The notes under the pieces are model-generated. The model saw only the letters and a list, made by a program, of their open reading frames with translations. It did no database searches and had not been told where the DNA came from. This document shows, piece after piece, positions 1-56,790 of a DNA stretch of 64,000 bases (positions are counted from its first letter, which is position 1; each line of letters opens with the position of its first letter). Source of the stretch: an uncultured Gemmatimonadales bacterium (GTDB lineage Bacteria; Gemmatimonadota; Gemmatimonadetes; Gemmatimonadales; GWC2-71-9); contig CAWBHB010000001.1 in NCBI GenBank assembly GCA_963788625.1, positions 1,332,512 through 1,396,511 of the forward strand. The letters run 5' to 3'. The position numbers were made by a program, and so were the translations under genes.

Positions 1-335
1 GTCTGATTGGGTGGCGGAGGCTGACTGCCCGGCGGGCGCATCGGTGTCGGGTCCAGCGACTTGAGCTGGAACACGACCTTACCGAAAGTCACCGAGTCGT
101 TCGCGGCCAGGATTCCTTCAGTGATCCGGGTCCCGTTGATGAAGGTCCCGTTCGAGCTGCCGAGGTCCTTGACGGTGATGCCGGTCTGATTGGGGACCAG
201 CTCTGCATGGCGGCGGGAGATCGTCGGATCGAAGATCGGAATGTCGCTCGTCACAGCCCGCCCGACGATGTACGCGTTCTTGGCGGAGAGGTCGAAGTCC
301 TGATCGCCGGTGAAGGAGACGAGCTTGAAGGGCAT
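1..335 (-). CDS. FHA domain-containing protein (5' part, runs off left edge)
   Basis: Hand translation of the minus strand from ATG 335: MPFKLVSFTGDQDFDLSAKNAYIVGRAVTSDIPIFDPTISRRHAELVPNQTGITVKDLGSSNGTFINGTRI. This carries the G-R / S-R-R-H / G-S-x-N-G-T signature of forkhead-associated domains. It is absent from the ORF track because no stop lies inside the window. Confidence 0.7.
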   Translation of the reverse strand, partial: MPFKLVSFTGDQDFDLSAKNAYIVGRAVTSDIPIFDPTISRRHAELVPNQTGITVKDLGSSNGTFINGTRITEGILAANDSVTFGKVVFQLKSLDPTPMRPPGSQPPPPNQ

Positions 336-367: not shown

Positions 368-492
368 TCGGGGAGAGAAGGGAAAGGGGAAAGGGGAATG
401 GGGAAAGGGAAAGGGAGAGCCGCTTGGCTCAGTCCTTTTGCCCTCGCCCTTTCCCTTTTCCCTTTTCCCCTTTCTCCCCCCCCATTCCCGCC
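368..492. repeat. Imperfect palindrome built from tandem heptamers (GGGAAAG-type arm, CTTTCCC-type arm)
   Basis: Left arm gggagagaagggaaaggggaaaggggaatggggaaagggaaaggg, a short spacer, then the complementary arm ccctttcccttttcccttttcccctttctcccc. It overlaps the trpE stop region. Confidence 0.8.
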
Positions 493-1958
493 AGCCCCAT
501 GGCGGCCAGGACCGCCCGCGCCTTGGCCTCGGTCTCCCGCCATTCGCCCTGCGGATCAGAATCGGCCACAATACCGGCGCCGGCCTGCACCCAGGCCCGG
601 TTCCCCTTCATGACGGCGGTCCGGATCGCGATGGCGGTATCGAGGCTCTTGCCCCCCCAACCGATGTAGCCAACCGCACCTGCGTAAGGGCCACGCCGCA
701 CCGGCTCCAGTTCGTCGATGATTTCCATCGCCCGTATCTTCGGGGCCCCCGAAACTGTTCCGGCCGGGAAGCAGGCGGCTAGTGCATCGAGCGCGTCGAG
801 ACCTTCCCGCAGCAGGCCGCGCACCTCGCTCACCAGATGCATCACGTGAGAGTAGCGTTCGATCACCATGAAGGCGGTCATCCGAACACTGCCATAGCGC
901 GCCACCCGCCCGACGTCGTTGCGTCCAAGGTCGACCAGCATGAGGTGCTCCGCCCGCTCCTTGGGGTCGGCCTCGAGCTCGGTGGCGAGCCTCGCATCGG
1001 CCTGGGGCGTAGCGCCACGAGGCCGAGTCCCGGCGATCGGACGCAAGGTGACCTCGTCGTTCTCCACCCGGACCAGGACTTCCGGTGAGCTGCCGACGAT
1101 GTGCAGGTCGTCGCAGTGGAGGAAATAGAGGTAGGGCGCTGGATTGAGGGCCCGGAGATATCGATAGGTCAGCATTGGGTCCGGAGCTGCCAGATCGAGG
1201 CGGCGGGACAGTACGGTCTGAAATGTGTCGCCGGCCGTGATGTACTCCTGAATCCGACGAACTCCGTCCTGAAATTTCCCGTCTCCGTAGGGCGAGCTGA
1301 CCTGGGGGACCGGAGCCGCCGCCGGGAGGTGAAGCGGCCCGATCGGTGAAGGCTGCCTCAGCCGTTCCAGCCAATCCCCGATCTTCGCCTCGGCCCCGCG
1401 GTAAAGATTCTCCAGCTCCGCCCGTGTCATATTCTCCGCGACTTCGACGTTCGCGATGACCGTGGCGCGGTTATACAGGTTGTCGAGCACGAGCAGGGTG
1501 TCGGCAACCATGAGAACGGCATCGGGCAGCGAACGGTCGTCGGGCGGCGCGTTGGGGAGCCGTTCCAGGGTCCGAACGATGTCGTACCCGATGAAGCCGA
1601 CGGCGCCGCCGGTGAAGCGAGGCAGTCCGGGAACCTCGACCGACGGATGCTGTCGCATCATGGTGCCAAGGTGTTCCAGCGGAGCCACGTCGTCTTCGAC
1701 CACCTGCCAGCCGGTATCCTGGCGCCAGCGTTCCGCAGTCCGGCCCCGGTAGCGGTAAACCTCGCGGGGATTGGTCGAGAGAAAGGTGTAGCGGGCCCAT
1801 TTCTCTCCGCCCTCGAGAGATTCGAGGAGGAAGCCATAGGGGCCCCGGTGTAGCTTGGCGAAGGCGGAAACCGGGGTGTCGCCGTCCAGCACCACCTCAC
1901 GGGTAACCGGGACCATCCCCGGCTGGGCGCGGGACAGGAAGACTTCGAGGGTTTCCAT
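429..1958 (-). CDS. trpE: Anthranilate synthase component I
   Basis: 509-aa ORF with chorismate-binding family motifs: LESLEGGEKWARYTF, GDTFQTVLSRRL, RGPYAGAVGYIGWGGKSLDTAIAIRT. The last ~20 codons (GMGGEKGEKGKGKGRGQKD) are read out of the heptamer palindrome. Confidence 0.9.
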   Translation of the reverse strand: METLEVFLSRAQPGMVPVTREVVLDGDTPVSAFAKLHRGPYGFLLESLEGGEKWARYTFLSTNPREVYRYRGRTAERWRQDTGWQVVEDDVAPLEHLGTMMRQHPSVEVPGLPRFTGGAVGFIGYDIVRTLERLPNAPPDDRSLPDAVLMVADTLLVLDNLYNRATVIANVEVAENMTRAELENLYRGAEAKIGDWLERLRQPSPIGPLHLPAAAPVPQVSSPYGDGKFQDGVRRIQEYITAGDTFQTVLSRRLDLAAPDPMLTYRYLRALNPAPYLYFLHCDDLHIVGSSPEVLVRVENDEVTLRPIAGTRPRGATPQADARLATELEADPKERAEHLMLVDLGRNDVGRVARYGSVRMTAFMVIERYSHVMHLVSEVRGLLREGLDALDALAACFPAGTVSGAPKIRAMEIIDELEPVRRGPYAGAVGYIGWGGKSLDTAIAIRTAVMKGNRAWVQAGAGIVADSDPQGEWRETEAKARAVLAAMGLAGMGGEKGEKGKGKGRGQKD

Positions 1959-2589: not shown

Positions 2590-4665
2590 ATGGTGAGCCT
2601 CATTAGGCGGCCACGATGGGCGGTGTGCTGCGCCGCGTTCCTGGTGCTACCCGCGCTCTCCCCCTCGCTTCGCGCTCAGCAGTGGAACTCGCCGGAAGCG
2701 CTGGAGCTGGCTGCTCGCGCGACAGAGGTGAGAGGACAGGCCCAGCGAGATTCATCCCTGCGCAGTTACCGCACCCGGGCTCACGGCTTCGTCTTCTTTC
2801 TCGCGCAGGTAGGCGACGAGTTGCAAGGCGCACCACGCCTGGTCAAGGCCGACGAGCTCGACGTCGAAGTCTATTGGCGCGCCCCGGCCCTGAGCAAGCA
2901 GACCATCCTGGGTTGGCGGGACGGTCGCTGGCTGCCCACCGACATCAACTACCATCGCGACCACCTCGGCATCGTCACCAACAATTTCGGCGACCGGATC
3001 CGGATCGGTGAAGGTGACGAGGTCAAGGACGTGGCACACCCGCTCTCTCCCGACGGACTGAATCGGTACGACTTCGCGCTCACCGACTCTTTGCGGATCC
3101 AGACCCGAGACGGCGACCTTCTGGTCTACCAGCTCCAGGTGCGACCCAGGGATTGGGGTGAACCCCTGGTCATAGGGACTCTATCGCTCGATGCGGCGAC
3201 CGCCGAGCTGGTGAGATTCCGTTTCGGGTTCACGCCCGCGGCGTATCTGGAGAAGGGCTTGGAGGACATCAGCATCATGCTGGAGAACGCGCGCTTCGAA
3301 GACCGCTGGTGGCTTCCTTACCGACAGGAGATCGAGATCCGGCGCCGCACCCAGTGGCTCGACTTCCCCGCGCGCGGAATCATCCGGGGTCGCTGGGAGA
3401 TCGGAGATTACGACTTCGACGTAGCCATACCTCCCGACGTCCTGCGCGGCCCTGCGATCGGCGGGTTGCAGGCCGCCTCCGACACTGGCGGGGAGTGGAA
3501 TCAACCGCTTGCGGCCTCGCTGGGTCACGTCGCGGCCCCAGTCGAGCAGCGGGACCTCGACTCCCTGAGGGTGGAGCTGGGCCGCATCGCCGGGGGACGA
3601 GTCCTCTCCGGGCTTGGTTCTGGCGGCCTCGCTGTCCCCTCGGTCAGCGACATCGTCCACGTCAATCGGGTCCAGGGTCTCACGCTCGGGGCTGCCGCGA
3701 CCCTCGCTCTGGCGGAGCGGCGGGTTCAGCTCAAGCCTCGGGTGGCCTTCGGCACTTCGGACGAGCGCTTCACCGGCGAACTGGCCATCGGGGTAGCCGC
3801 GGGTCCCGCTACCGTGACGTTGGAGGGAGGGCGGTCCATCCATGACTTCAGTGACATTCCGGTCATCTCCGGCGTATTGAATTCGATCCTCGCTCAGGAA
3901 GCCGGGGAGGACTATGGCGACTACGTCATGGTGGATCGGGTCGGGCTGGGTGTGCGATATCCGCTTTCCGGGGTTACGGCCATCTCGCTGAACGCGGGGT
4001 ATGAAGACCCATCCTCCATCGACGTCGAGGCCAGTCCGGCCCACGGCAGTTACCGCTCGAATCCTGCGTTGGGCTCGGACGCGAGCTTGGTGGGACGAAT
4101 CTCCCTGATCAGAAACTCCGGTGAGCTTGGAGCCTACCGTCGGCCGGCACTCACTCGAGGCACGATTGCGTTTGAAGGCAGTTCCGGCGGGAATGATTAT
4201 TTCAGGGCCACTGTCGAGGGCACGGTGGCAATGCCGCTCGGGCCGGGAACCCTGGGTTTCACCGCGTACGGCGGTTGGGGTACCGCGGAACTCCCCGCTT
4301 ACCGAAGCTTCGTCCTGGGTGGACGCGGCACTCTTCCCGGAGAGCCTTTTCGGGCGTATGGCGGTAGAGCCATCGCGCTTGGCAGGTTGGAGTGGGACTT
4401 TCCGGTACCGTTTCTCGCAATTCCGTTGGGCTCCTTTGCATCCACCGGCCAAACCATTACCGTGGGTCCCTTCCTCGCTGCCGGCTGGACCAGCGATGAA
4501 GTGGCCAACACGCCGTGGGACAAAACAGCCGGGGTACGTCCGGTGGCTGGAGTGGCAGCAGAATTCTTTCTGCGGCTCTTTCGAGTGGAGGCTGGAGTCG
4601 GACTCAAGACCGGTGAGGTCGGGGTGATGGTGGATGTGAATCCGGATTGGTGGGGCATTTTATAG
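2590..4665 (+). CDS. Omp85/surface-antigen-like outer membrane protein
   Basis: ORF 2509-4665. ATG 2590 gives a signal-like MVSLIRRPRWAVCCAAFLVLPALSPSLRAQQ. The C-terminal third looks like an Omp85-type barrel (FVLGGRGTLPGEPFRAYGGRAIALGRLEWDFPV). Confidence 0.55.
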   Translation: MVSLIRRPRWAVCCAAFLVLPALSPSLRAQQWNSPEALELAARATEVRGQAQRDSSLRSYRTRAHGFVFFLAQVGDELQGAPRLVKADELDVEVYWRAPALSKQTILGWRDGRWLPTDINYHRDHLGIVTNNFGDRIRIGEGDEVKDVAHPLSPDGLNRYDFALTDSLRIQTRDGDLLVYQLQVRPRDWGEPLVIGTLSLDAATAELVRFRFGFTPAAYLEKGLEDISIMLENARFEDRWWLPYRQEIEIRRRTQWLDFPARGIIRGRWEIGDYDFDVAIPPDVLRGPAIGGLQAASDTGGEWNQPLAASLGHVAAPVEQRDLDSLRVELGRIAGGRVLSGLGSGGLAVPSVSDIVHVNRVQGLTLGAAATLALAERRVQLKPRVAFGTSDERFTGELAIGVAAGPATVTLEGGRSIHDFSDIPVISGVLNSILAQEAGEDYGDYVMVDRVGLGVRYPLSGVTAISLNAGYEDPSSIDVEASPAHGSYRSNPALGSDASLVGRISLIRNSGELGAYRRPALTRGTIAFEGSSGGNDYFRATVEGTVAMPLGPGTLGFTAYGGWGTAELPAYRSFVLGGRGTLPGEPFRAYGGRAIALGRLEWDFPVPFLAIPLGSFASTGQTITVGPFLAAGWTSDEVANTPWDKTAGVRPVAGVAAEFFLRLFRVEAGVGLKTGEVGVMVDVNPDWWGIL

Positions 4666-4757
4666 CCCCTGTAATCTCCGGGTCATCCACCTTACCTTTG
4701 GGGTGCTGCTCGAGCGGGCGGCGCCTCCCCCTAATTGGTTATCAGGCTTGAGGTTAA

Positions 4758-7028
4758 ATGCAGTTCACGGATGAGTGGCTCGTCCCCAGCCTGGAAAAGA
4801 TTCTGGAGCCCGGGATCCTCGACAGATTGCGCGAGGAACCGGGGAAGGAACCAGTGTCTCTCTGGAGCACGCTGGTTGAGCGCAAGGAAGCCAAAGACGA
4901 CGACATCCTGAAGGCCGCTGCCGCCCGATTCCGCCTCCCCGTCGCGGATCTGAATCAGGTCGATCCCCGGGCGCGCGAGGCGGTGCCGGAACCTCTGGTC
5001 CGCCGCTTCAACATCATTCCGATCGGCATCAGCGACTCGTATCTCGAGATCGCGACTGCGAATCCCAACGACATCGACGCCGAGAAGGACCTCGCCTTCG
5101 CTACGGGGCGCGAGGTGCGGCTGCGTCTCTGCTCCCCCTCCCGCATTGCCGACAAGATGGAGGAGATGTACCGCGGCAGCTCGGAGGTGATGTCCCAACT
5201 GCTCGGCAACATGGACGAGGGGCTCGAGGTCACCCAGCTGAAGGACGATGAGGAGCTGTCCGATCTCGGTGCGTCGGCCGACGAGGCGAGCCAGCGTCCA
5301 GTCGTGCGCCTGGTGGACCTGATGCTTTCAGACGGCATCCTCTCCCGGGCGAGCGACATCCACATCGAGCCGGGCGAAGCCGGTGTCACGGTGCGCTACC
5401 GCATCGATGGCGTGCTGCGCCAGGTCATGAGCATCCCGCGAACCGCTGGGGCTCCGCTCATCTCCCGAATCAAGATCATGTCGGGCCTGGATATCGCGGA
5501 CCGGCTGCGACCTCAGGATGGTCGAGCGCGAGTGGCGGTGAACGGCTCTCCGGTGGACCTCCGGGTTTCGACCCTGCCGGCTTCGCTTGGCGAGAAGGTC
5601 GTGATCCGGATCCTGAACGCGAAGGCGACCGTGCTCTCGCTCGACTCGCTCGGCATGAGCGAGGAGGAGCGGGGCGCGATCAAGAACGTGCTCAACAACA
5701 AGGAGGGGATCGTACTGGTCACCGGGCCGACCGGCTCCGGCAAGACCACGACGCTCTACTCCGCGTTGCGCATGGTGCAGAGCGACGGCGTCAACATCGT
5801 CACGGTCGAGGACCCGGTCGAATACCGGTTGGGCAAGGGCATCGTGCAGGTGCAGGTGCACGAGAAGGCGGGGCTGACTTTCGCGGCCGCGCTTCGGTCG
5901 ATTCTCCGGCAGGACCCCGACGTCGTCCTGGTCGGCGAGGTCCGGGACCGGGAGACAGCGCAGATCGCGCTGCAGGCCTCGTTGACCGGTCACCTGGTGC
6001 TCTCGACTCTCCACACCAACGACGCCCCGAACGCCATCACCCGTCTGGTGGACATGGGGATGGAGCCCTACAAGATCGGTCCCGCGCTCCGCGGGGTCAT
6101 CGGGCAGCGGCTCATGCGGCGGATCTGCCCCCGCTGCCGCGAGATCAACGACGGAGATATCCCGACCAGGATCCGCCGCTACATCCCGCAGGGCACGACA
6201 CTCTATCGCGCGGTCGGCTGTCCCGATTGCGCCATGACCGGATACCGCGGCCGATTCTCGGTAGTGGAAATCCTGACCATGAACGCCGAGCTGGAGCGGA
6301 GGATCGGGGCGGGCGCGACCGCGGACAAGATCGCCGAGGCCGCCAGGGCGAACGGGATGAAATCGCTGTTCGAGAGCGGCCTCCAGCATGTACTGAGTGG
6401 GGAGACCAGCGTGGAGGAACTGCTCCGCGTGGTGGACGTGCCGATGGACGAGCGGGGCGGCAGCCGCGGCTCGACACCCAGCGTCACGCCCCTCCCGTCC
6501 AAGCGCAGCACGCCTGCTTCCCCGCACGGGACGCCGACCGGAACGCCTTCGGGCCCCTTCCCGGCGGTCGTGGTTCCGGTGCCCGACCTCACCACCGCCT
6601 TCGAGTTGATCGACGACGAGGCCGGGCCGACCGAAGTCATCAGGCCGGTCCATGGCGCGTCGGTGCTGCTGGTGGACGACGAAGATTCACTTCGCAAGGT
6701 GATGAAAGACCTGTTGGCCCGCGAGGGCTATGCGGTCATCGAGGCCCGGAACGGAGTCGAGGCCCTGGACCAGGTGGATCGCCATGCTCCCGATGTGGTT
6801 GTGCTCGACCTGAACCTGCCGGACATGGACGGTTACTCTGTCCTGTCGCAGCTCCGCTCCCGTCCGGCCACCCGGAAGACGCCGGTCATCGTCCTCACCG
6901 CCAAGGGTGACGAGGACAACGAGGTCCGGGTCTTCGAGCTCGGCGCCGACGATTTCCTTACCAAGCCCTTCCGAGCCAAGGCGCTGTCGAAACGGCTGGA
7001 GGTGGTGTTGGCGAGGAGGAAGGACTGA
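4758..7028 (+). CDS. GspE/PilB-family secretion ATPase fused to a C-terminal response-regulator receiver domain
   Basis: N-terminal T2SSE_N-like region. Walker A VTGPTGSGKTTTLYS, Walker B/Asp box DPDVVLVGEVRD, His box TGHLVLSTLHTN, tetracysteine CPRC...CPDC. A ~60-aa Pro/Ser/Thr linker precedes a REC domain (LLVDDEDS...VVVLDLNLPDMDG...VIVLTAKG...LTKPF). Confidence 0.85.
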   Translation: MQFTDEWLVPSLEKILEPGILDRLREEPGKEPVSLWSTLVERKEAKDDDILKAAAARFRLPVADLNQVDPRAREAVPEPLVRRFNIIPIGISDSYLEIATANPNDIDAEKDLAFATGREVRLRLCSPSRIADKMEEMYRGSSEVMSQLLGNMDEGLEVTQLKDDEELSDLGASADEASQRPVVRLVDLMLSDGILSRASDIHIEPGEAGVTVRYRIDGVLRQVMSIPRTAGAPLISRIKIMSGLDIADRLRPQDGRARVAVNGSPVDLRVSTLPASLGEKVVIRILNAKATVLSLDSLGMSEEERGAIKNVLNNKEGIVLVTGPTGSGKTTTLYSALRMVQSDGVNIVTVEDPVEYRLGKGIVQVQVHEKAGLTFAAALRSILRQDPDVVLVGEVRDRETAQIALQASLTGHLVLSTLHTNDAPNAITRLVDMGMEPYKIGPALRGVIGQRLMRRICPRCREINDGDIPTRIRRYIPQGTTLYRAVGCPDCAMTGYRGRFSVVEILTMNAELERRIGAGATADKIAEAARANGMKSLFESGLQHVLSGETSVEELLRVVDVPMDERGGSRGSTPSVTPLPSKRSTPASPHGTPTGTPSGPFPAVVVPVPDLTTAFELIDDEAGPTEVIRPVHGASVLLVDDEDSLRKVMKDLLAREGYAVIEARNGVEALDQVDRHAPDVVVLDLNLPDMDGYSVLSQLRSRPATRKTPVIVLTAKGDEDNEVRVFELGADDFLTKPFRAKALSKRLEVVLARRKD

Positions 7029-7140
7029 GGGAATGGCAGAATGAGCGAATGGCGGAATGGCAGAATGAGCGAATGGCGGAATGAGAGCGCAGTAGCGTGA
7101 CCCCTTCCTCCATTCCGCCATTCGACCATTCCGCCATTGC
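7027..7140. repeat. Palindrome of tandem octamers (GAATGGCR/GAATGAGC words)
   Basis: Left arm gaatggcagaatgagcgaatggcggaatggcagaatgagcgaatggcggaatgag. Right arm ctccattccgccattcgaccattccgccattgc. The right arm lies inside the first codons of hisC. Confidence 0.8.
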
Positions 7141-8200
7141 TCTGATCAAGCCCTCCGTCCGGGCTCTCTCCCCCTACACCCTCTCCGGCCTCTCCGCCGC
7201 GAGAAAGCTGAACCAGAACGAATCGCCCTTCGATGTGCCCGAACACCTCAAGCATGAGGTAGTCGAGCGTGCTTTGGCGACGCCGTGGAACCGCTATCCC
7301 GAGTTCGTGCCCCGACGGCTGGTCGAGCAGATCGCCGAGCGGCACGGGTGGGATCCGGAGGGCGTGCTGGTCGGGAATGGGTCCAACGAGGTCATCCAGG
7401 CTTCCATCTCGGTCTCGGTCAATACCGGCGATCCGGTCGTGGTTCCCCAGCCTTCGTTCGCGCTCTATCGCATCATGACTGGAGTGATGGGCGGACGCTA
7501 TCTGCCGGTGCCGATGGGACCGGAATACGCCTACGATGTCGATGCACTCGTCGGCGTGGCGCGCCGGGAGCGGGCCCGGGTGGTCGTACTGAACTCGCCC
7601 AACAATCCGACCGGATCGGTCCTGCCAGAGGACGGGGTGGCGACCCTGCTGGAACGCACCGAAGCGCTGTTGTTGTGCGACGAGGCTTACCAGGACTTCG
7701 GCGGCCCGACGGCGCTCACCCTGCTGCCCCAATCACCGCGGATCGTGGTGCTGCGGACTCTCTCGAAGGCGATGGGGATGGCCGGTCTCCGGTTCGGCTA
7801 CGCTCTCGCCCATCCGGAGATCGCCCGGGAGATTGCCAAGGCCAAGCTGCCGTACAACGTCAACGCGATCACCCTGGTGGCGGCGGAGGTCATGCTGAAG
7901 CACGGCGCCGAATTCGCCGCGCGAGCCAGGACCATTGCCCAGGAGCGTGACCGCTTCCTCGGCCTGCTCCGTGGTATCGCCGGACTGCATGCGTTCCCCA
8001 GCAAGGCCAATTTCGTGCTGGTCCGCTGCGACCGGCTTCCCGCCGGCACCGTTTTTCGCCGACTGGTCGAGGACCATGGGATTCTGGTGCGGGATGTGTC
8101 GAGCGGAGCCGGGCTGGCCGAGTGTCTGAGAATATCGGTGGGAACCCCCGAGGACACGGATGCAGTGGTGGTGGCCCTTTCGGCGATCTTCTCGGACTGA
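7097..8200 (+). CDS. hisC: Histidinol-phosphate aminotransferase
   Basis: 367-aa ORF (GTG start). Class-II aminotransferase pattern NQNESPF...NSPNNPTG...LRTLSKAMGMAGLRFGY (PLP lysine). Confidence 0.85.
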   Translation: MTPSSIPPFDHSAIALIKPSVRALSPYTLSGLSAARKLNQNESPFDVPEHLKHEVVERALATPWNRYPEFVPRRLVEQIAERHGWDPEGVLVGNGSNEVIQASISVSVNTGDPVVVPQPSFALYRIMTGVMGGRYLPVPMGPEYAYDVDALVGVARRERARVVVLNSPNNPTGSVLPEDGVATLLERTEALLLCDEAYQDFGGPTALTLLPQSPRIVVLRTLSKAMGMAGLRFGYALAHPEIAREIAKAKLPYNVNAITLVAAEVMLKHGAEFAARARTIAQERDRFLGLLRGIAGLHAFPSKANFVLVRCDRLPAGTVFRRLVEDHGILVRDVSSGAGLAECLRISVGTPEDTDAVVVALSAIFSD

Positions 8201-8211
8201 CAGGTTGTCTT

Positions 8212-8388
8212 GGGTCTAAGGTCTAGGGTCTAAGGTCTAAGGTCTAGGGTCTAAGGTCTAGAGTCGAGAGTCTGAAGTCGAGACTTCGTCCGCAGCGGGA
8301 CTCCAGACTTTGGACTCCAGACCTTAGACCTCAGACCCTAGACCTTAGACCCTAGACCTTAGACCTTAGACCTTGGACCTTAGACTCT
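8212..8388. repeat. 177-bp palindrome of tandem heptamers (GGTCTAA/GGTCTAG)
   Basis: Left arm has ~10 units ggtctaaggtctagggtctaaggtctaaggtctagggtctaaggtctagagtcgag. After a ~14-nt spacer comes the complementary arm ...ccagaccttagacctcagaccctagaccttagaccctagaccttagaccttagacc. It fills the hisC-hisB spacer. Confidence 0.9.
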
Positions 8389-8402
8389 AACACCCGCCCC
8401 CC

Positions 8403-8993
8403 ATGTCCCGCACCGCCGAAGTCTCCCGCACCACCAAAGAAACCACCCTCCGGGCCCGGGTAGATCTGGACGGGGCAGGCCAGGCGCGGGTGAAAACCGG
8501 GCTGGGGTTCTTCGACCACATGCTCGAGGCATTCGCCCGGCATGGCCTGATCGATATCGAGCTGGAGGGCCAGGGAGACCTGCACGTGGATGGGCATCAC
8601 ACGGTGGAAGACACCGGCATCGTGCTGGGCCAGGCGATCGGAAAGGCGCTCGGAGACCGCGCCGGGATCCGCCGCTACGCTGATGCGCTGGTGCCGCTGG
8701 ACGAGGCGCTGGTCCGCGTGGTGATCGACGTCTCGGGGCGTCCATTCCTCGCCTATCACGTCGACATCCCCAAGTGGCAGATGCTGGGAGACTACGACGT
8801 CTTCCTGACCCCGGAGTTCTTCCGGGCCCTGGTGCAGCATGCCGGTCTCACCGCCCACATGGACCTGATCCGGGGCGACAACCCGCATCACATCGTGGAA
8901 GCGGCCTTCAAGGCCTTCGCTCGCGCCCTGGAATCGGCGATAGCCCGCGACCCGCGAGTGAAGGGTGTCCCGTCCACCAAAGGCGTGCTGTGA
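8403..8993 (+). CDS. hisB: Imidazoleglycerol-phosphate dehydratase
   Basis: 196 aa: SRTTKETTL...GLGFFDHMLEAFARHGLIDIELEGQGDLHVDGHHTVEDTGIVLG, the diagnostic IGPD motifs. Confidence 0.9.
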   Translation: MSRTAEVSRTTKETTLRARVDLDGAGQARVKTGLGFFDHMLEAFARHGLIDIELEGQGDLHVDGHHTVEDTGIVLGQAIGKALGDRAGIRRYADALVPLDEALVRVVIDVSGRPFLAYHVDIPKWQMLGDYDVFLTPEFFRALVQHAGLTAHMDLIRGDNPHHIVEAAFKAFARALESAIARDPRVKGVPSTKGVL

Positions 8994-9610
8994 TCGCTGT
9001 GGTGGACTACGGGGTAAACAACCTCAGCAGCGTCGTCCGGGCCCTGGCCGCTGCGGGCCACGAGGCCAGGCTCTCGGCGAATCCGGAGGAGATCCGTCGC
9101 GCCGACCGGCTGGTGGTGCCTGGCGTGGGGCACTTCGGACAAGGCTCCCGCAATCTGTCGGAGCGAGGACTACCGGACGCGATCCGTGCGGTCGTCTCAG
9201 CCGGCCGGCCGGTGCTCGGTATCTGTCTCGGACTGCAGCTCTTGTTTCCGGAAAGCGAGGAAGCCCCCGGAGTCGCAGGTCTCGCCGTGCTCCAGGGGAG
9301 GGTGATTCGCTTCCGCACCAGTCTCCCACTGCCTCACGTCGGATGGGCCGAGGTCCGGCCAACCGAGCAGGGCTCCACGCATCCGGTGCTGTCGTCGCTC
9401 TTTCCCGATGGAGCCACGTTCTACTATCACGTTCACAGCTTTCACCCGTCTGATCTCGCGGCCGACGCGGCACTGGCACTCGGCGACTACGGGGGAACCT
9501 TCCCGACCATCGTGGGACGCGACAACGTCCTCGGCGTGCAATTCCACCCGGAAAAGTCGCAGCAGGCGGGGGTTGCGTTGCTCGCAAGATTTGGCAGCTG
9601 GAACCCGTGA
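8990..9610 (+). CDS. hisH: Imidazole glycerol phosphate synthase, glutamine amidotransferase subunit
   Basis: Inside ORF 8774-9610. GTG 8990 overlaps the hisB stop (GTGA). VIAVVDYGVNNLSSV..., catalytic GICLGLQ, HPEKS. Confidence 0.85.
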   Translation: MIAVVDYGVNNLSSVVRALAAAGHEARLSANPEEIRRADRLVVPGVGHFGQGSRNLSERGLPDAIRAVVSAGRPVLGICLGLQLLFPESEEAPGVAGLAVLQGRVIRFRTSLPLPHVGWAEVRPTEQGSTHPVLSSLFPDGATFYYHVHSFHPSDLAADAALALGDYGGTFPTIVGRDNVLGVQFHPEKSQQAGVALLARFGSWNP

Positions 9611-10074
9611 CGACATTCCGCGTTACCTTCGTGGATGTCTACCCGCTTCGGCTGGAGGCCAAGATCCTGGAAGTGCTGGCGCTTCGCCGTGCACCGGCAG
9701 GGCGCTGCAGCGGTGCCTGGGAAGTGGTGCACGGCAGCATCGAAGAGGGAGAGACTCCGCTTCAAGCGGCACTGCGGGAATTGCGGGAAGAGACTGGTTT
9801 CGCACCAGTCCGGCTCTACAATCTGAGCCGAGTGGAAACGTTTTACCGCCACCGGGTGGATGAGGTTGCCTTCATTCCGGCCTTCGCCGCATTCGTGGAA
9901 AGGGCCCCTGTCCGATTGAGCCACGAACACGACGCCTTCGACTGGCTGCCCTTCGCCGCGGCACGCGAGCGCCTCGCCTGGCCCCGGGAGCGGCGGGCAC
10001 TCGAGGACATCGCAGTGCTGTTGGGTGGTGGGAGTGCGGGGCAGCTGGAGGACGTTCTGAGAATGGAGGAATGA
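9607..10074 (+). CDS. Nudix hydrolase
   Basis: 155 aa. GTG overlaps the hisH stop (GTGA). Complete Nudix box GSIEEGETPLQAALRELREETGF (G-x5-E-x7-R-E-U-x-E-E-x-G-U). Confidence 0.75.
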   Translation: MTTFRVTFVDVYPLRLEAKILEVLALRRAPAGRCSGAWEVVHGSIEEGETPLQAALRELREETGFAPVRLYNLSRVETFYRHRVDEVAFIPAFAAFVERAPVRLSHEHDAFDWLPFAAARERLAWPRERRALEDIAVLLGGGSAGQLEDVLRMEE

Positions 10075-10177
10075 GCGAATGGCGGAATGAACGAATGACA
10101 AAATCCGTGGATTGCGCTATTCATTCCGCCATTCCGCCATTCCGCCATTCTGCCATTCCTCCATTCTGCCATTCCCC
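10059..10177. repeat. Palindrome of tandem octamers (same GAATGGCG word family as 7027-7140)
   Basis: Left arm gagaatggaggaatgagcgaatggcggaatgaacgaatgac. Right arm attcattccgccattccgccattccgccattctgccattcctccattctgccattcc. Confidence 0.8.
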
Positions 10178-10180
10178 ACC

Positions 10181-10954
10181 ATGCTCGCCCGACGCATCAT
10201 CCCCTGTCTCGACGTGGCCGACGGACGAGTGGTCAAAGGGGTGCATTTCGAGGCGCTCCGGGATGCGGGGGATCCGGTCGAGCAGGCCGCGCGGTACGAC
10301 GCCGAGGGTGCGGATGAGTTGGTTTTTCTCGACATCTCCGCCAGCAATGAGGCCCGGGCGACTACCCTCGACATGGTGGCCCGGGTGGCCGAGAAGCTCC
10401 TCATACCGTTCACGGTGGGTGGGGGAATCCGGTCCTTGGAAGACGCTGGATCGGTGTTGCGAGCCGGAGCCGACAAGATTGCGGTGAATACCGCGGCGGT
10501 GCGCGATCCCCACCTGGTTCGTCGGCTGTCGGACAGCTTCGGCGCGCAGTGCATCGTGGCGGCGGTGGACGTGAAGCGGGCTCCGCCATCTGCAGTTTCC
10601 AACTCTTCGAGTTGGATGGTGTACGTCAACGGAGGACGCGAGCCAACTGCACTCGACGGCCTCGAATGGATGACCAGGCTCGAGCAGTCCGGGGCGGGGG
10701 AGATTCTTCTGACCTCGATGGACCGGGATGGCACCCGGACCGGTTATGATCTCGATCTGCTGCGGGAGACAACCAGCCGAGTGAGCATCCCGGTCATCGC
10801 CTCGGGCGGAGCCGGGAGCCTGGCGCACCTCGCCGAGGCGTTCGAGGCCGGTGCTCACGGGGTCCTCGCCGCCTCGATTTTCCACTACCAGGGTTCCTCC
10901 CTCCCCGAGGCACGAGCCTACCTGCGGGCGCGAGGCTATGTTGTGAGACCATGA
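10181..10954 (+). CDS. hisF: Imidazole glycerol phosphate synthase, cyclase subunit
   Basis: ORF 10112-10954. ATG 10181 gives the canonical [36 protein letters not shown]...FLDISAS...TVGGGIRS. The upstream 23 codons are repeat-derived. Confidence 0.9.
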
Positions 10955-12435
10955 TCATCCGTCTTGTCGTCGCGACCTTCCTGCTCCTGGCCCCAGCCCT
11001 GGGTACCGCAACGGGATTTACTGGAACTCCCGTTCACCCTTCACCGTTCACCGTTCACACCGGCCTTGTCGCCTGCACTCGACTCCAGAAACCCGGCACC
11101 CAGGTGAGCGGAGAGGTGAAGATCTGCCCGGGCCGCTATCGGATTGCCGATCCCGATGAACGGGGCATCATCGTCGCGTCGGCCCCCGGGACGCGGATCG
11201 ATCTGACCGGTGTCACACTCGAGAGTGGCGATTCGGTTCCCGCCGACTATCGGGGCGTTGGAATCACCAGCACCGGAGTGGACAGTGTCGCGGTGCGCGG
11301 CGGCCGGATCCGTGGCTATCGCTACGGGATTCGACTGGACGGGGGCAGTGGACACCGGATCAGCGGGGTCGATGTTTCCCAGACCAGAAGCCAGGCACTG
11401 CGGTCGACTCCCCAGCGATACGACGAGAAAGACTGGCTCGACATCTTCCACCCCGACACGTTCGAGACCTACGGGCACGGGGTCTATCTCAAGCGGACCA
11501 GCGGCGCCTCGGTGACGGGTGTGACCGCCCGCGGGGCTCAGAACGGGATCGGATTGTTCGAGAGTCGGGACGCGATCATTGCCGATAACGATGTCAGCAG
11601 CAATTCGGGCTGGGGGATTCACCTCTGGCACTCATCGCGCAATACCATCCTGCGCAACAAGGCCCACCACAACGTGCGCTGCGAGAGCCCTTCCTATCGC
11701 CACGGCTGTGACAGCGCGGGCCTGCTGCTCCGCGAGCGGAGCGACTCGAATCTCATCGCGGACAATGACCTGACCTGGTCGGGCGACGGGTTTTTTCTGA
11801 GCGGGCAGCGACCGGAAGTCTCGGGCTCGATCGGCAACCTGGTCATCCGGAACGATGCCTCATTCGCCTATCACAATGCGTTCGAGTCCACCTTCAGCGA
11901 ATGGAACACCTTCCTGGAGAACCGGGCCGACAGCGCCGACTACGGCTTCTGGCTGGGCTACTCCCGCGCCAACACGGTAGAGAAGAACTCCATCGTCGGC
12001 TCCCGTACCGCCGGGATCGCCATCGAGCACGGCGGCGAGAACGAACTCAATGGCAACATCATCATCGGCGGCAAGGTCGGGATCCGGCTCTTTACCTCGC
12101 GGGAGGGCGATGAGCCCAGCCGCGATTACCGGATCGCCGACAACACCATCGCCAGGGTAGGCCAGGGGATCCTGGTGGAGCGGAGCACCCGGATCCGGAT
12201 TCGGGGGAATCTGTTCGACGGGGTGGACGACGGGGTGGTGATCGATTCGGTCAGCGCCGATCTGCAGCTCACCGGAAATGTGTTCCTCTCCGCTCGACGC
12301 TGGTTCATCGATGCCCCAGTGCTGGACGCGGGAGGGAATTTCTGGGCCGTAGCGAGCGCCGATCAGGTCGCCCGGAAGCTGCACGGCCGGATTACGCTGC
12401 AGCCGTTCCGGCGGGCGGAGGAGGCAGGCTACTAG
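10951..12435 (+). CDS. Secreted right-handed parallel beta-helix repeat protein (NosD/pectate-lyase-fold-like)
   Basis: 494 aa. ATG overlaps the hisF stop (ATGA). Signal-like N-terminus. Repeated ~22-aa turns such as [44 protein letters not shown]. Confidence 0.6.
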
Positions 12436-15528: not shown

Positions 15529-16656
15529 ATGAACTTGATCGTCCGGACCGGGGCGGTGGGACTATGTCTGCTCCCGCTCGCCCGGGCCTCCGCCCAGGAC
15601 ACCAGCCCCAAACTCACCATCGGCGGCTACGGCGAGGTCCACTACAACAACCCGACCGGTCAGGACTCTCCCGGGATCGTCAACGTCAAACGGTTCGTGA
15701 TCTACGCTGGCTACGCTTTCAATGACCGCATCACGCTGCACTCCGAATTGGAGCTGGAAGACACGAGGATCGAGGGTGGAGAATCGGGTGGCGAGGTTGC
15801 GCTGGAGCAGGCGTATCTGGATTACCGCTTCTCCGATGCGTTCACGCTGCGGACTGGTCTCCTGCTGCCGCCGATCGGCATCATCAACGAGACCCATGAG
15901 CCGCCCACCTTCAACGGGGTAGAGCGGCCCGACTTCGATCACGACGTCATCCCCACCACGTGGCGGGACATCGGCGTCGGCGCGGTCGGCCAGATTCCCG
16001 GAGTCTCGGGGTTGAGCTACCGGGTCTTCCTGGTGAACGGGCTCAAGGCCGAAGGGTTCACCGCCGAGGAAGGGATTCGCGAGGGGCGCCAGGAGGGCAG
16101 GGAGGCGAGCTTCGCCAATCCCTCCTTCACCGGGCGACTGGAGTACGCTCAGGCCGGCCTCAAGGTCGGCGGCTCCTTCTGGTATGGCGGATCGGCCAAC
16201 CAGGTTCCCGGGCTCGGCACCGGGTCCTTCGACGCGCCGGTTCTGCTGGTCTCGGGCGATGCCCGCTATGATCACGGCCCCTTCATGCTGCGCGGGGTCG
16301 TGGCGACGGTCGAGGTCTACGACGCCGACAAGATCAACGCGGTCTACGGACTCGGCGTCGGCCGTCGGATCGCCGGTGGTTATGTGGAGGGCGGTTACAA
16401 CGTCCTGTCCCTTCTCGCGCCGGCGACGAGCCAACGGCTCAATGCCTTCGTCCGCTACGAGAACTACGACACCCAGGCCAAGGCGGCTCCAGGGACGCCC
16501 GACGACGACACGCTCGCTCGCCGGATCACCACCTTCGGCCTGACCTACAAGCCGCTTTGGAATGTCGCCTTCAAGGCGGACTACCAATTGCGCCGGAACA
16601 AGGCGGGCGTGGGACAGAACGAGGTGTTGGGGTTGGGGGTGGGGTACCAATTCTGA
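15529..16656 (+). CDS. Outer-membrane beta-barrel porin (OprO/P-like)
   Basis: ORF 15520-16656. ATG 15529 gives the signal MNLIVRTGAVGLCLLPLARASAQD. Alternating amphipathic strands and a terminal ...GLGVGYQF aromatic residue. Confidence 0.55.
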   Translation: MNLIVRTGAVGLCLLPLARASAQDTSPKLTIGGYGEVHYNNPTGQDSPGIVNVKRFVIYAGYAFNDRITLHSELELEDTRIEGGESGGEVALEQAYLDYRFSDAFTLRTGLLLPPIGIINETHEPPTFNGVERPDFDHDVIPTTWRDIGVGAVGQIPGVSGLSYRVFLVNGLKAEGFTAEEGIREGRQEGREASFANPSFTGRLEYAQAGLKVGGSFWYGGSANQVPGLGTGSFDAPVLLVSGDARYDHGPFMLRGVVATVEVYDADKINAVYGLGVGRRIAGGYVEGGYNVLSLLAPATSQRLNAFVRYENYDTQAKAAPGTPDDDTLARRITTFGLTYKPLWNVAFKADYQLRRNKAGVGQNEVLGLGVGYQF

Positions 16657-16659
16657 AAA

Positions 16660-16812
16660 GCGTGAAAAGAGAAAAGCGTGAGAGGTGAGAAGTGAGAGGT
16701 GAGACGTGGGACGTGAAGACGTGGGAGGTGAGGACGTGAGAGGTATTCGACGGGAATGGCTCTTGTGGCCACTTATGTCGTTCCTTCTCACGTCTCACGT
16801 CTCACGTCTTAC
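16660..16812. repeat. Palindrome of tandem heptamers (GTGAGAG/GTGAGAC words)
   Basis: Left arm gcgtgagaggtgagaagtgagaggtgagacgtgggacgtgaagacgtgggaggtgaggacgtgagag. Right arm ctcacgtctcacgtctcacgtc. The right arm encodes part of the next gene's N-terminus. Confidence 0.8.
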
Positions 16813-17248
16813 GGCCCAGGACGCCCCTCTGAAAAAGGTCCAGGCGAGTCTCGCTCGGGTGTTCGGAGATGGGGCCGTCGCCGACACGGTGCAGGTGGAT
16901 GCAGCTCCGGTGCTGCGGGTCGAGCGGGCCGATTCGGTGCTGGGATACGCGGTGGTGCGCAACGTGAAAGGGAAGGATCAGCCGATCACGTTTCTGGTCG
17001 CGGTGGATCAGGGCGATCACCTGAAGGACGTAGACATCCTGGTTTACCGCGAGCCCTATGGCGGCGAGGTGGCGTACGATTCGTGGCGCAAGCAATTCCG
17101 CGGGATGACGGCCCAGGATCCCATGGAAGTCGGCAAGGATATTCGGTCGATCTCAGGAGCCACGATCAGCGTCAATTCGGTGACCCTCGCCGTGCGCAAG
17201 GCGGTTGCCGACCTCACCGAGTGGCACGCAGCAGGGAAGCTCAAATGA
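16775..17248 (+). CDS. Exported FMN-binding domain protein (ApbE flavinylation substrate type)
   Basis: ORF 16706-17248, ATG 16775. The C-terminal DIRSISGATISVNSVTLAVRKA matches the FMN_bind flavinylation motif ([S/T]-G-A-T-[S/I]). Confidence 0.7.
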   Translation: MSFLLTSHVSRLTAQDAPLKKVQASLARVFGDGAVADTVQVDAAPVLRVERADSVLGYAVVRNVKGKDQPITFLVAVDQGDHLKDVDILVYREPYGGEVAYDSWRKQFRGMTAQDPMEVGKDIRSISGATISVNSVTLAVRKAVADLTEWHAAGKLK

Positions 17249-17751: not shown

Positions 17752-18737
17752 ACCGCCGGGACTTCGTGTCGATGCTCGGCGCGTTCGTAACGGTGGGAGA
17801 ACCTCGCCTTCGGTCCTCGCCCAATGGAGGAACCGCGTGCCGCCTTGCCGCCTGGCCGCCTTGCCGCCTTGTAGAGCGCTGGTCCTGGGCGATGGGTCAG
17901 CCGGTTCACCTGATGCTCTTCCACCAGTCGGAAGGCGCGGGACTCGAGGCGGCCGCCCAGGCGCTGGAAGAGCTGCGCAGAGTCGAGGCTCGGCTCTCCC
18001 GCTTCGACGATTCCAGCGATCTCTCGGAGCTGAACCGTCACGCCGGGAAGACAGCGATGAAGGTGGATCGGGATCTGCTCGAGGTGCTCACCGTCGCGGC
18101 GCGCGCCCGTCGGGCGACCGGAGGAGCATTCGATGTCGCGGTCGAGCCACTGATGCGGGTGTGGGGCTTCCGGGAGCCCAGGAAGGCCGCGCCCGGCGCA
18201 TTCGAGCTACGGGAAGCCGAGAAGGCGGTACGAGCCAGCGTGGTGCGGATCGACGGCGACCGAGTCTCGTTGCCGAGTGCCGTCACTCGGCTCGACCTGG
18301 GCGGGATTGGCGTGGGCTACGGGCTGGATCGGGCAGCCTCGGTGCTTCGCGCCGCTGGGATCGAACGCGCCTTCCTCGACGTGAGCGGAGACTGCATCGC
18401 ACTGGGCGCCCCCCCGGGCACCGATGGCTGGCGGGTAGACCTCGCTGATCCATCAGGCTCGGGCGCACCTCGTCCCGCCGGTCTCTTGAGGGATCGCGCC
18501 CTCGCCACGAGTTCCAACACAATGTCCGTCATTCGCTACGGCGCCATGGTCCGGGGGCACGTCATGGATCCGGCGACTGGCTATCCCGCGGATCGGATGG
18601 TCCAGGTCAGCGTCCGGGCTCGCAACGGGATCGAGGCGGATGTGTTGTCTACGGCGATGCTGGTGGCGGGGCGGCCGTTCGAGGGGGTGGAGAGGTGGTG
18701 GGGAGCTGAAAGTGACGAGGGAAGGACTGAGGACTGA
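17748..18737 (+). CDS. apbE: FAD:protein FMN transferase (ApbE family)
   Basis: Within ORF 17310-18737. GTG 17748 overlaps the upstream stop (GTGA). Tat-like VNRRDFVSMLGA. ApbE motifs SRFDDSSDLSELN, GGAFDVAVEPLMRVWGF, LDLGGIGVGYGLD. Confidence 0.8.
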   Translation: MNRRDFVSMLGAFVTVGEPRLRSSPNGGTACRLAAWPPCRLVERWSWAMGQPVHLMLFHQSEGAGLEAAAQALEELRRVEARLSRFDDSSDLSELNRHAGKTAMKVDRDLLEVLTVAARARRATGGAFDVAVEPLMRVWGFREPRKAAPGAFELREAEKAVRASVVRIDGDRVSLPSAVTRLDLGGIGVGYGLDRAASVLRAAGIERAFLDVSGDCIALGAPPGTDGWRVDLADPSGSGAPRPAGLLRDRALATSSNTMSVIRYGAMVRGHVMDPATGYPADRMVQVSVRARNGIEADVLSTAMLVAGRPFEGVERWWGAESDEGRTED

Positions 18738-18968
18738 GGGGGAACGGTGAACGGTGAACGGTGAACGGTGAAGGGGAAGAAAAGTAACGAGCTACTCCAG
18801 CACCTCATCCCGAGACACCCCGAGCGAAGCGAGGGGGTCCGAGGGATCCAGGGTCCTTGCCTTGGCACTGGGACAGGACGGTAGGTCCCTCGCTGCGCTC
18901 GGGATGAGGTGCCGTTTCACGCCCCGCTGCTCTCCCCGTTCACCGTTCGCCCTTCACCGTTCACCCCT
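18738..18968. repeat. Composite: heptamer arms (GTGAACG)n / (CGTTCAC)n enclosing a nested ~113-bp inverted-repeat element (18800-18912)
   Basis: Outer arms ggaacggtgaacggtgaacggtgaacggtgaagggg and ccccgttcaccgttcgcccttcaccgttcacccc. Inner element ends gcacctcatcccgag...cgagcgaagcgaggg / ccctcgctgcgctcgggatgaggtgc. Confidence 0.75.
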
Positions 18969-18991
18969 CCAATCCTCACTGCACCTTCGCG

Positions 18992-20269: not shown

Positions 20270-20312
20270 GGCGTGTGCCCCGCCCGCCCGTCCGCCTTCC
20301 GCCCTGTTCGCC

Positions 20313-49268: not shown

Positions 49269-49290
49269 GGGGGCCTCCTGTGGTGCCGGC

Positions 49291-54102: not shown

Positions 54103-56790
<2,688 letters not shown>

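Follow-up and report, generated by a model that had tools for sequence, protein, structure and literature searches.

Results

The window analysed here, 64,000 nucleotides (nt) of contig CAWBHB010000001.1, is an ordinary chromosomal region with 65% GC that carries trpE, a gene for a T2SSE-receiver ATPase, the cluster hisC-hisB-hisH-Nudix-hisF, apbE, engB, clpX, clpP, tig, htrA, dnaK and many genes for Ser/Thr kinases; searches with Rfam and ARAGORN returned tRNA-Leu alone. Our subject is a long hairpin made of tandem heptamers in the spacer between hisC and hisB, together with comparable arrays at other gene junctions of the window and of related genomes. An exact look-up of the window HisB protein gave no match, the genome itself thus being absent from the collection searched. 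Judged from its HisB and HisC relatives, the host is an uncultured soil member of the Gemmatimonadales: all of these relatives belong to Gemmatimonadales metagenome-assembled genomes or soil metagenome contigs, the nearest with 96-97% (HisB) and 89-93% (HisC) amino acid identity, and this search recovered no cultured close relative.

The imperfect hairpin spans positions 8207-8389 and nearly fills the 202-nt hisC|hisB spacer, which is bordered by the hisC stop codon (8198-8200) and the hisB ATG (8403). Its left arm consists of 11 heptamers, GGTCTAA/GGTCTAG in the outer and AGTCGAG/AGTCTGA in the inner part, followed by a GC-rich loop of ~15-19 nt and 13 complementary heptamers ending 14 nt before the ATG. 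Tandem Repeats Finder (TRF) resolved the left arm into GGTCTAA x6.9 and GTCGAGA x4 and the right arm into AGACCTT x9.6. The arms (73 nt) are 88% complementary, and the minimum free energy (MFE) of the RNA amounts to -130.7 kcal/mol compared to -69.0 +/- 4.6 kcal/mol for dinucleotide shuffles (z -13.3; 0 of 200 shuffles folded as well). The heptamer hairpin that an earlier note had read from the letters of this spacer is therefore real. Identity of the arms stays high when they are shifted by 0, 7, 14 or 21 nt (88, 87, 81 and 86%), i.e. the stem is slippery and arm copying is not readable from the register. Within the arms, TRF also reported higher-order periods of 14, 16, 21 and 24 nt.

For comparison, we used a Gemmatimonadales set of 655 kb, comprising the window and 89 contigs from independent assemblies, and a control set of 1.36 Mb with 73 loci of other phyla fetched with the same HisB query, and called tandem arrays in both with TRF. 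Metagenome relatives were gathered by a HisC protein scan; a degenerate DNA pattern for the hisB start gave no match in metagenome contigs. Labels such as L001, L003 or L081 denote comparison contigs or loci. Genes were called by a home-made log-odds model trained on Pfam-verified genes, whose start sites are approximate; it superseded two naive callers based on third-position GC (GC3) or codons, which were unfit for this high-GC sequence.

Arrays with a period of 7 reached 15.7 per 100 kb in the Gemmatimonadales set and 1.03 in other phyla (~15x), those with a period of 8 reached 5.65 and 1.03, whereas the coding-type periods 6 (4.28 vs 3.81) and 9 (4.28 vs 2.86) differed little. Inverted pairs of complementary arrays occurred 32 times in the Gemmatimonadales and 0 times in the other phyla. 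Only 17% of the sequence is located outside gene interiors, yet 121 of 146 arrays (83%) were placed there, corresponding to a ~24-fold enrichment. The census and the test of intergenic bias proposed in the earlier note thus came out in its favour on related contigs, with period-7/8 arrays 5-15x denser than in the controls, as did its placing of the arrays at gene boundaries, including those inside the his operon. Per 10 kb, we found 5.4 arrays in the window clade, 8.2 in L082, 1.2-2.4 in more distant Gemmatimonadales and ~0.23 elsewhere. The trait is lineage-specific: strong in the window clade, weaker in other Gemmatimonadales and nearly absent from the other sampled phyla.

The same hairpin architecture is present in SPAdes, MEGAHIT, Joint Genome Institute (JGI) and long-read assemblies of many samples, and L084 and L085, which are 98.95% identical and come from different samples, carry the same hairpins. 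Since independent assemblies and samples of the relatives agree, an assembly artefact is excluded. The arrays nevertheless appear to break short-read assemblies: on L163, which carries the closest HisB relative (96% identical), the contig runs out 63 nt ahead of hisB, in the midst of a C-rich arm built from a further word, GTCGCCNNN (1-63).

Among ~80 Gemmatimonadales loci the hisC|hisB junction is bimodal, as the two genes overlap or are separated by <=25 nt in ~45 loci and by 41-215 nt in ~30. About half of the longer spacers are tandem-heptamer hairpins, with a word that is set by lineage: GGTCTAA in the window (11-13 units per arm); GGTAGTG, GGGAGTA and GGGTGGT in L081, L083, L084/85 and L087, whose flanks are 82-93% identical at the nucleotide level (2-4 units per arm); GGTGTCA in L082 (3-5 units per arm); and GAACGGT, GAGCGGT and GAACAGT in other clades (2-5 units per arm). 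In every genome the right arm complements the left arm of the same genome. The coding flanks of the window and L081 are 93% identical, and their BLAST alignment breaks off exactly at both hairpins. The comparison of orthologous spacers suggested in the earlier note therefore gave words and unit numbers that differ among relatives, with complementary arms in each. It shows a word that drifts or is replaced much faster than the flanking genes diverge, with complementarity and position retained.

A further group of loci carries a distinct 10-mer family in the hisC|hisB spacer (CGCAGATGAA / CACGGATRCA; L102, L116, L125, L126, L146, L153, L001 and L140). Its sequence is conserved across lineages, its loops are long and variable and a GGAG Shine-Dalgarno-like motif precedes hisB. 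In contrast to the heptamer hairpins, its G.U pairs favour the sense strand by 2:1.

The same pattern extends to neighbouring junctions. Despite their differing words, all sampled members of the window clade keep hairpins at hisC|hisB and Nudix|hisF, and none lacks arrays in the T2SSE|hisC spacer. At Nudix|hisF, an 8-mer family (GAATGRNG) is shared by the window, L083 and L003, although the L003 flanks are only ~70% identical at the nucleotide level; L081 and L084/85 have GATTGAA 7-mers instead. Between the Nudix-side hairpin and hisF, L084 (~4100-5590) and L085 (~8950-10430) contain ~1.5-1.6 kb of extra sequence which is absent in the window, L083 and L003.

Changes within the arms were traceable in a few cases. 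Between L084 and L085 a single arm has changed in length, by exactly two heptamers, and in L082 the arm lengths are 4.5 versus 19.9 units. In one clade a stepwise change runs through all units, from CGG|CCG in L089 via CGG|CTG in L138/149, which gives G.U pairs in the sense RNA, to CAG|CTG in L115; here a mutation has spread through one arm before the other arm followed. In this clade, the sense strand folds 20 kcal/mol better than the antisense strand, and a sense bias was restricted to the 10-mer family and one GAACGGT clade. The alignments show evolution that is concerted within arms, with slippage-type changes of length arm by arm. The slippage origin considered in the earlier note is supported by the two-unit difference between L084 and L085 and by the 14/16/21/24-nt periods.

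The arms follow an almost fixed order. Of the 32 inverted pairs, 30 have a G/purine-rich arm on the 5' side and a C-rich arm on the 3' side, and as the elements are palindromic, this G-first order holds on both strands. Skewed arrays near stop codons are G-rich in 33 and C-rich in 4 cases on the sense strand, those near starts C-rich in 21 and G-rich in 4. The 137 arrays comprise 69 distinct canonical words of 7-10 nt. In G-orientation, TGA occurs in 19/69 words, against 10.1 +/- 2.8 expected when letters are shuffled, TAG is under-represented and ATG/GTG/TTG are found in 32/69; in C-orientation, stop triplets occur in 6 words and start triplets in 1/69. Few words resemble the Xanthomonas/Nostoc consensus, i.e. 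GGGAAAG, GGGGAAC and GGGGGATT (L003). At least four G3+ tracts are present only in the arrays at 380-415 and 28928-28989, while GGTCTAA, GAATGGCG, GTGAGAC, GTGAACG, AGCCGTT and GGTCGAT contain no G3 runs; word composition thus rules out the G-quadruplex as a common denominator.

Most hairpins that follow a gene end have the stop codon within or touching the first unit. In the hairpin starting at 7027, the TGA of the T2SSE gene forms bases 1-3 of the first unit TGAGGGAA; the stop of the porin-like gene opens a run of TGA-initial units in the hairpin at 16654; the ApbE gene stop lies inside a duplicated GGACTGA and the Nudix gene stop inside unit 2 of the ~10058-10180 hairpin. In relatives, hisC ends with TGAACGG-TGAACGG or TAAGCGG-TGAGCGG. 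On the other side, the 3' arm stops 0-20 nt short of the next start or overlaps it. With a G-rich array beginning at the stop and its C-rich complement reaching up to or into the next start, the whole spacer can fold and bring stop and start together. Hairpins fill the convergent stop-to-stop spacers of L003 (273-391, 14081-14285) and of the window (18738-18970) exactly.

Some arms reach into coding sequence. The sole in-frame start of hisC is a GTG at 7097 in the loop of the 7027-7142 hairpin, so that HisC residues 2-14 are specified by the C-rich 3' arm. An in-frame loop start, with the arm as a variable N-terminal tail, is found in four lineages (window, L081, L083, L084/85), and the ENA gene call for L081 concurs. 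Likewise, the start with the best score for the FMN_bind gene, ATG 16775, coincides with the border of loop and 3' arm. TrpE owes its last 22 residues (tail GLAGMGGEKGEKGKGKGRGQKD*) to the 368-492 hairpin, whose G-rich arm is coding when read on the minus strand and whose loop contains the stop. Because C-rich arms are almost devoid of stop triplets, gene callers run open reading frames (ORFs) through them, resulting in false or variable N-termini. L082 is an example of arrays creating such spurious or variable protein N-termini: at 8689-8847, a C-rich arm of ~20 CAATCCCT units (160 nt) faces 4.5 units in the G-rich arm, and the public gene call extends hisC through the C-rich arm, with a weak 'Cornifin' repeat match.

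No T-run follows any of the window hairpins on either strand, and a terminator consensus scan of the window detected nothing at the arrays except a trivial 5-bp loop stem (417-430). The window contains 5 canonical terminators compared to 9.1 in shuffled sequence. Several hairpins are located between co-directional, evidently co-transcribed cistrons without room for a promoter.

In total, the window holds nine hairpins and at least eight one-armed or multi-word arrays, with arrays of any kind at ~16 of ~65 gene junctions (about a quarter) and predicted hairpin structures of ~25-81 base pairs. A GGGAAAG heptamer hairpin (368-492; MFE -82 kcal/mol, z -5.4) separates trpE (429-1958, minus strand) from an FHA-domain gene (3-335, minus strand). 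Hairpins of 8-mers lie between the T2SSE-receiver ATPase gene and hisC (7027-7142, GAATGGCR/GAATGAGC, z -6.8) and between the Nudix gene and hisF with its ATG at ~10182 (~10058-10180, GAATGGAG/GAATGAGC/GAATGGCG, z -9.1). Between the porin-like gene and the FMN_bind gene (16654-16815), TGAAAAGCG units are followed by TGAGAGG/TGAGAAG/TGAGACG x9, a loop and TCTCACG x4 (z -7.9 for the fold of 16670-16815). Further downstream (18723-18970), GGACTGA x2.4 precedes a hairpin (18738-18970) with arms of GAACGGT x4.4 and CCGTTCA x4.3 that are 85-88% complementary and enclose an insert of 150-163 nt. The remaining three are an 8/9-mer hairpin (GGGCGGGCA, then CCCGTCCG) between clpX and the EngB-like GTPase gene, both on the minus strand (20228-20318; MFE -54 kcal/mol, z -3.65), a partial hairpin of AGCCGTT/AGCTGTT x8 versus GCTTAAG x3.4 that separates a DUF6494 gene from the following minus-strand gene (49288-49406, z -3.1) and a short one (AGCCGTTAGCC ... 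GCTAACGGCT, then GCTAA-type units) in the gap from the dnaK stop to the htrA-like start on the minus strand (51768-51845, z -5.9).

Folding thus bears out the hairpins listed in the earlier note at 368-492, 7027, 10058, 16670, 49288 (in part) and 51768, with z values from -3.1 to -9.1, and arm complementarity that at 18738-18970. Its count of palindromes at more than ten boundaries shrinks to nine hairpins, one of which (20228-20318) it had not listed, and holds for arrays in the wider sense. Many different words are indeed used, but the claim that each locus has its own went too far: words of the GAATGGCG type are used at both 7031 and 10061 and also in a related genome, GTGAACG recurs at 18742, 11030 and inside 28950, GGTCGAT is found at four and AGCCGTT at three places.

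In the loop of the 18738-18970 hairpin, an inverted-repeat element is nested (~18800-18912, ends CCTCATCCCGAG...CTCGGGATGAGG) that belongs to a family of ~65-125 nt. Members of this family lie in hisC|hisB hairpin loops of L127 (1697-1809) and L141 (~1865-1950) and also in L131 (1316-1329), which suggests that hairpin loops are insertion targets for an element resembling a miniature inverted-repeat transposable element (MITE). As a window-wide repeat it is ruled out, being single-copy in the window.

Discussion

The hairpins of the Gemmatimonadales window are not canonical terminators, MITEs or artefacts. We consider it somewhat better than an even chance that they are slippage-driven, self-complementary microsatellites which are kept at cistron boundaries as stem-loops and have a role in RNA punctuation. 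Such an element would be seeded by tandem duplication of a heptamer or octamer which contains or follows a stop codon, a duplication that would be neutral because the first stop still terminates translation. The inverted arm may then arise and stay complementary via intrastrand hairpin templating, selection on the stem or both. Translation signals would enforce the G-first order: G-rich words contain many stop and start triplets as well as Shine-Dalgarno-like GGAG/GAGG, which should be harmless past a stop and harmful ahead of a start, and C-rich words, which carry almost no such signals, should be harmless ahead of a start. In a polycistronic mRNA, the stem could act as punctuation by forming a barrier to 3' exonucleases and a double-stranded site for RNase III, and it could sequester a C-rich stretch that might otherwise load Rho. 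The stem base would hold stop and start ~25-30 nt apart, and an insertion of 100-200 nt would then leave the cistrons coupled.

Several observations weigh against this interpretation. The hairpins are dispensable, as documented by the ~45 of ~80 loci with overlapping or <=25-nt hisC|hisB junctions and by L164 (HisB 87% identical), which has spacers of 11 and 16 nt and is free of arrays altogether. One-armed and multi-word arrays and arrays with very unequal arms exist, hairpins are also found in divergent spacers between two starts, and both fit a by-product as well as a function. The heptamer hairpins do not clearly favour the sense RNA: G.U pairs number ~59 in sense and 52 in antisense orientation, the MFE difference is positive in 8 lineages and negative in 7, and in the window clade the antisense fold is even slightly more stable. 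Besides, many of the comparison loci are orthologous or otherwise related, and the counts are therefore not phylogenetically independent. Finally, we infer the functional roles of the hairpins from sequence.

The most serious competitor is a pure mutational by-product, in which a lineage that slips on 7-8-nt units combines this with fold-back or template-switch synthesis, and purifying selection on the neighbouring genes alone shapes placement, orientation and hairpin form. We regard this as possible, with a chance of roughly one in four. The dispensability and patchy distribution of the hairpins, a turnover far above that of the flanks, unequal or missing arms, arrays that spill into coding ends (TrpE tail, HisC N-terminus), their presence in all types of spacer and the lack of an overall wobble bias on the sense strand would all be expected. 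What speaks against it is retention: the hisC|hisB and Nudix|hisF hairpins, and likewise the T2SSE|hisC arrays, are kept in all sampled window-clade members despite the change of words, and the GAATGRNG family persists at Nudix|hisF across flanks of ~70% nucleotide identity. In addition, the G-C/G.U/A-U series with its 20 kcal/mol advantage of the sense strand suggests selection on pairing in one clade.

A bolder version of our preferred reading, to which we give a tentative place somewhat below the by-product, is that a distinct process in this clade writes and rewrites self-complementary microsatellites at cistron boundaries. They would be stop-seeded with the G-rich arm first, structure and position would be conserved with the sequence replaced within ~7% nucleotide divergence, and the outcome would be a general operon punctuation by RNase III processing, 3'-end protection or ribosome hand-over with loop starts.

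An element acting at the DNA level, be it a cruciform, a G-quadruplex or a periodic site for a nucleoid, cold-shock-type or regulatory protein, seems improbable to us, although such roles have been put forward for the G-rich heptamers of Xanthomonas and Nostoc. Palindromes read alike on both strands, and the missing overall sense-strand signature would be in line with this idea, as would the GGGAAAG and CGGGGAA arrays with at least four G3-4 tracts, since GGGAATC repeats form G-quadruplexes in vitro (Rehm et al. 2015, PMC4692102), and the heptamer periodicity, which matches the one CspB per heptamer cited at second hand in PMC4679880. However, most words contain only GG or single G and are unable to form G3 quadruplexes, 69 words and the replacement of the word at one and the same spacer argue against a sequence-specific binder, and our Pfam scan of 56 window ORFs suggests no dedicated factor.

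Transcription terminators or attenuators without a U-tract (I-shaped) are a slightly poorer candidate still. The stems are very stable, some of them exactly fill convergent stop-to-stop spacers, and canonical terminators are scarcer in the window than in shuffles, so the organism may use other signals. On the other hand, no T-tract follows any hairpin, several hairpins stand between his cistrons with no space for a new promoter, the T2SSE|hisC hairpin contains the downstream start codon and hairpins also occur in divergent spacers. Among the roles mentioned in the earlier note, those of an RNA stabiliser or attenuator are putative, and that of a classical terminator is left unsupported by the missing T-tract and the operon-internal positions; as intrinsic (Rho-independent) terminators, the hairpins are rejected for want of a U-tract.

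Mobile elements of the MITE, repetitive extragenic palindromic (REP) or bacterial interspersed mosaic element (BIME) type, or an assembly artefact, are very unlikely, since the intergenic and palindromic nature of the elements, the break of contig L163 inside an array and the true MITE-like element nested in one loop are outweighed by loci that share no sequence, terminal repeat or target duplication, by a first unit that grows out of the local stop-codon context, by orthologous positions across genomes and by an architecture that is the same across independent assemblies and identical in two samples. A MITE is ruled out in particular, given that each hairpin is unique, its first unit is continuous with the stop-codon context and its position is orthologous.

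Among known systems, REP and BIME elements offer the best analogue for a possible action of the hairpins, as they are intergenic, often intra-operonic transcribed stem-loops with a proposed role in protecting upstream mRNA from 3' exonucleases and in modulating operon polarity. REP sequences, 20-40 nt in length, all follow one consensus with a GTAG/CGTC tag and are spread by REP-associated tyrosine transposases (RAYT), whereas the hairpins described here are each assembled in place from a tandem word of their own, and the window hairpins have no consensus in common. A RAYT (Y1 transposase) was not seen in the general Pfam scan of 56 window ORFs, which included no dedicated RAYT test. The RNase III hairpins of the T7 early region are likewise long, near-perfect double-stranded RNA stems between cistrons, whose cleavage leaves a protective 3' stem; these are unique conserved sequences with internal loops, in contrast to the tandem-repeat arms found here. 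Our predicted structures provide the near-perfect double-stranded RNA of at least ~20 bp between cistrons that characterises RNase III sites, a purely functional analogy.

The short tandemly repeated repetitive (STRR) sequences of cyanobacteria are similar in being non-coding tandem heptanucleotides with many loci per genome, while our arrays, with a period of 7 at most loci, also have periods of 8, 9 and 10. As reportedly described by Mazel et al. in 1990, STRR consist of few fixed words, mostly in single direct arrays, in low-GC filamentous cyanobacteria. They differ in taxon, words and the lack of a hairpin arrangement, and none of our 69 words equals CCCCAGT, TTGGTCA or CAACAGT, the STRR words of heterocystous cyanobacteria.

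Heptamer microsatellites belong to the repeats known to be over-represented in bacterial genomes (Mrazek et al. 2007, quoted in PMC4692102 and PMC4679880). In the high-GC genus Xanthomonas, GGGAATC arrays are 89-93% intergenic and lie near the end of the upstream ORF, and each genome contains 70-75 inverted pairs of the convergent type (Rehm et al. 2015, PMC4692102). Both there and in Nostoc, where the word is GGGGAYT, the G-rich strand of an array is the sense strand behind a stop and the antisense strand ahead of a start, and length and sequence vary between related species with the single or paired type kept (PMC4692102). The view of the earlier note that no such arrays had been described in a high-GC lineage or with inverted arms is therefore outdated, and the convergent GGGAATC pairs of Xanthomonas are the closest precedent. 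Our arrays share with this class the intergenic tandem heptamers, the stop/start orientation rule, the frequent inward G-rich inverted pairs and the high GC content. They miss two of its defining features, the single G3-tract word and the G-quadruplex potential: instead of one genome-wide word with a G3-4 tract and four preferred units that follows a G-quadruplex logic, we find at least 69 words of 7-10 nt, most of them unable to form such structures. Arms reach up to 13 units, the paired form is prominent, the word at one spacer is replaced between close relatives and the phylum is Gemmatimonadota. TAACTGA heptamer repeats of marine Beggiatoaceae, Microcystis and some Bacteroidetes also are intergenic and abut start codons, bring stops in all frames and have a proposed translational role, but consist of a single word in 2-6 copies and are almost exclusively direct (one inverted case in 170 sets; PMC4679880).

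Full-text literature searches returned no description for Gemmatimonadota, and papers on intrastrand triplex motifs and surveys of DNA structure proved irrelevant. What is new is the phylum, the many words and periods, the dominant long hairpin form, the replacement of the word with retained complementarity at one orthologous spacer and the way in which stop and start codons form part of the structure. In many bacterial genomes, no class of simple repeats is as over-represented as long heptamer microsatellites, whose origin and function have remained unexplained since the catalogues of 2007 and 2015. The clade described here is informative as one gene boundary can be traced through dozens of independent metagenomic lineages, in which hairpin and orientation persist while word, period (7, 8 or 10 nt) and unit number change; the question whether the structure is selected or merely generated thereby becomes testable. 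The orientation rule shared with Xanthomonas and Nostoc gains a candidate explanation in the translation-signal content of the words. On the practical side, gene calls with false or variable N-termini and short-read assemblies broken by arrays have to be expected.

Further arrays and repeats in the window

Besides the hairpins, single arrays are scattered over the window. Directly after the stop of an Omp85-like gene (28927-28997, plus strand) lies a G-rich arm of CGGGGAA x9 with GGTGAAC units inside; it is a single arm as described in the earlier note, with no complementary arm and no excess folding (z -0.95). C-rich arrays are CCGTTCA x4 in the hisF/NosD-like spacer (11030-11058, plus strand), ahead of the point where the downstream gene probably starts, and the 8-mer array TGCCGCCT x4.2, which closely precedes the ApbE domain gene (17838-17871, plus strand). 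The hisF/NosD-like spacer measures 128 nt in L164. A short array of GAGTCTG x4.4 at the 5' end of a minus-strand gene (47007-47037, plus strand) is C-rich on the sense strand of this gene, and GCCGTAA x3.9 follows the stop of a plus-strand gene (48969-48995).

In the region of the kinase genes, direct multi-word arrays on the plus strand consist of GGTCGAT/GGTCAAT/GGTCGTG and TTGCCGA (59498-59593, z 0.1) and of GGTCGAT, CAGGTGT and GATTGCC (59770-59860, z -1.8), and either coincide with or lie upstream of the N-terminal end of Ser/Thr kinase genes or fragments on the minus strand. Single plus-strand arrays of GGTCGAT x4.3 (62889-62918), CCGTCTC x4.4 (63121-63151) and GGTCGATGGACAAG x2.1 (63187-63216) lie beside kinase N-terminal fragments. 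The CTCCCGT palindromes that had been suggested at 59499-59600 and 59771-59865 are thus direct arrays of other words, and the third array of this group, at 63121-63151, is a single arm. The stretch 59446-60036 is a 265-bp unit tandemly duplicated 2.2 times with 84% identity, in which a compound hairpin element and multi-word heptamer arrays accompany the N-terminal fragment of a Ser/Thr kinase (reverse complement: LADRYRIERELGQGGM); similar fragments, again with arrays, are found at 62870-62920 and 63160-63216.

Compound palindromes at 30005-30126 and 59600-59715 represent a second kind of intergenic structured repeat. Each is a succession of several small stem-loops, with stems of 5-6 bp and loops of the TTNAG type (e.g. 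GCGGCTAAAGCCGC, GTCGCTTTAGCGAC, GTGGCTTAGCCAC), and the arms of 42-49 nt are 81-84% complementary. An inverted repeat at 62927-63098 with 37-nt arms 98 nt apart contains GTCATTGCGAGGAGGCCGTAAGGCCGACGAAGC, which presumably resembles a widespread small repeat of other soil and aquatic bacteria.

Some conserved genes of the window are split between frames (20313-21561, 34956-35911, 22875-23522). In clpX, the zinc finger is encoded in ORF 20701-21561 and the AAA half in ORF 20313-21107, a kinase domain is divided between 35387-35911 and 34956-35621, and the trigger-factor ORF carries the N-domain only; breaks of this kind also occur in L082. This suggests indel errors of a long-read assembly or pseudogenes, and in the case of some indel errors, the exact unit counts given above may be slightly off. 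Two repeats, finally, are intragenic: an 8-mer array (GGCGGCTC x9.4, 55876-55949) lies in the linker that follows the kinase domain of a Ser/Thr kinase, and a 9/27-nt coding repeat (AAGCTCGAG x12, 32756-32864) lies in ORF 32522-33037.

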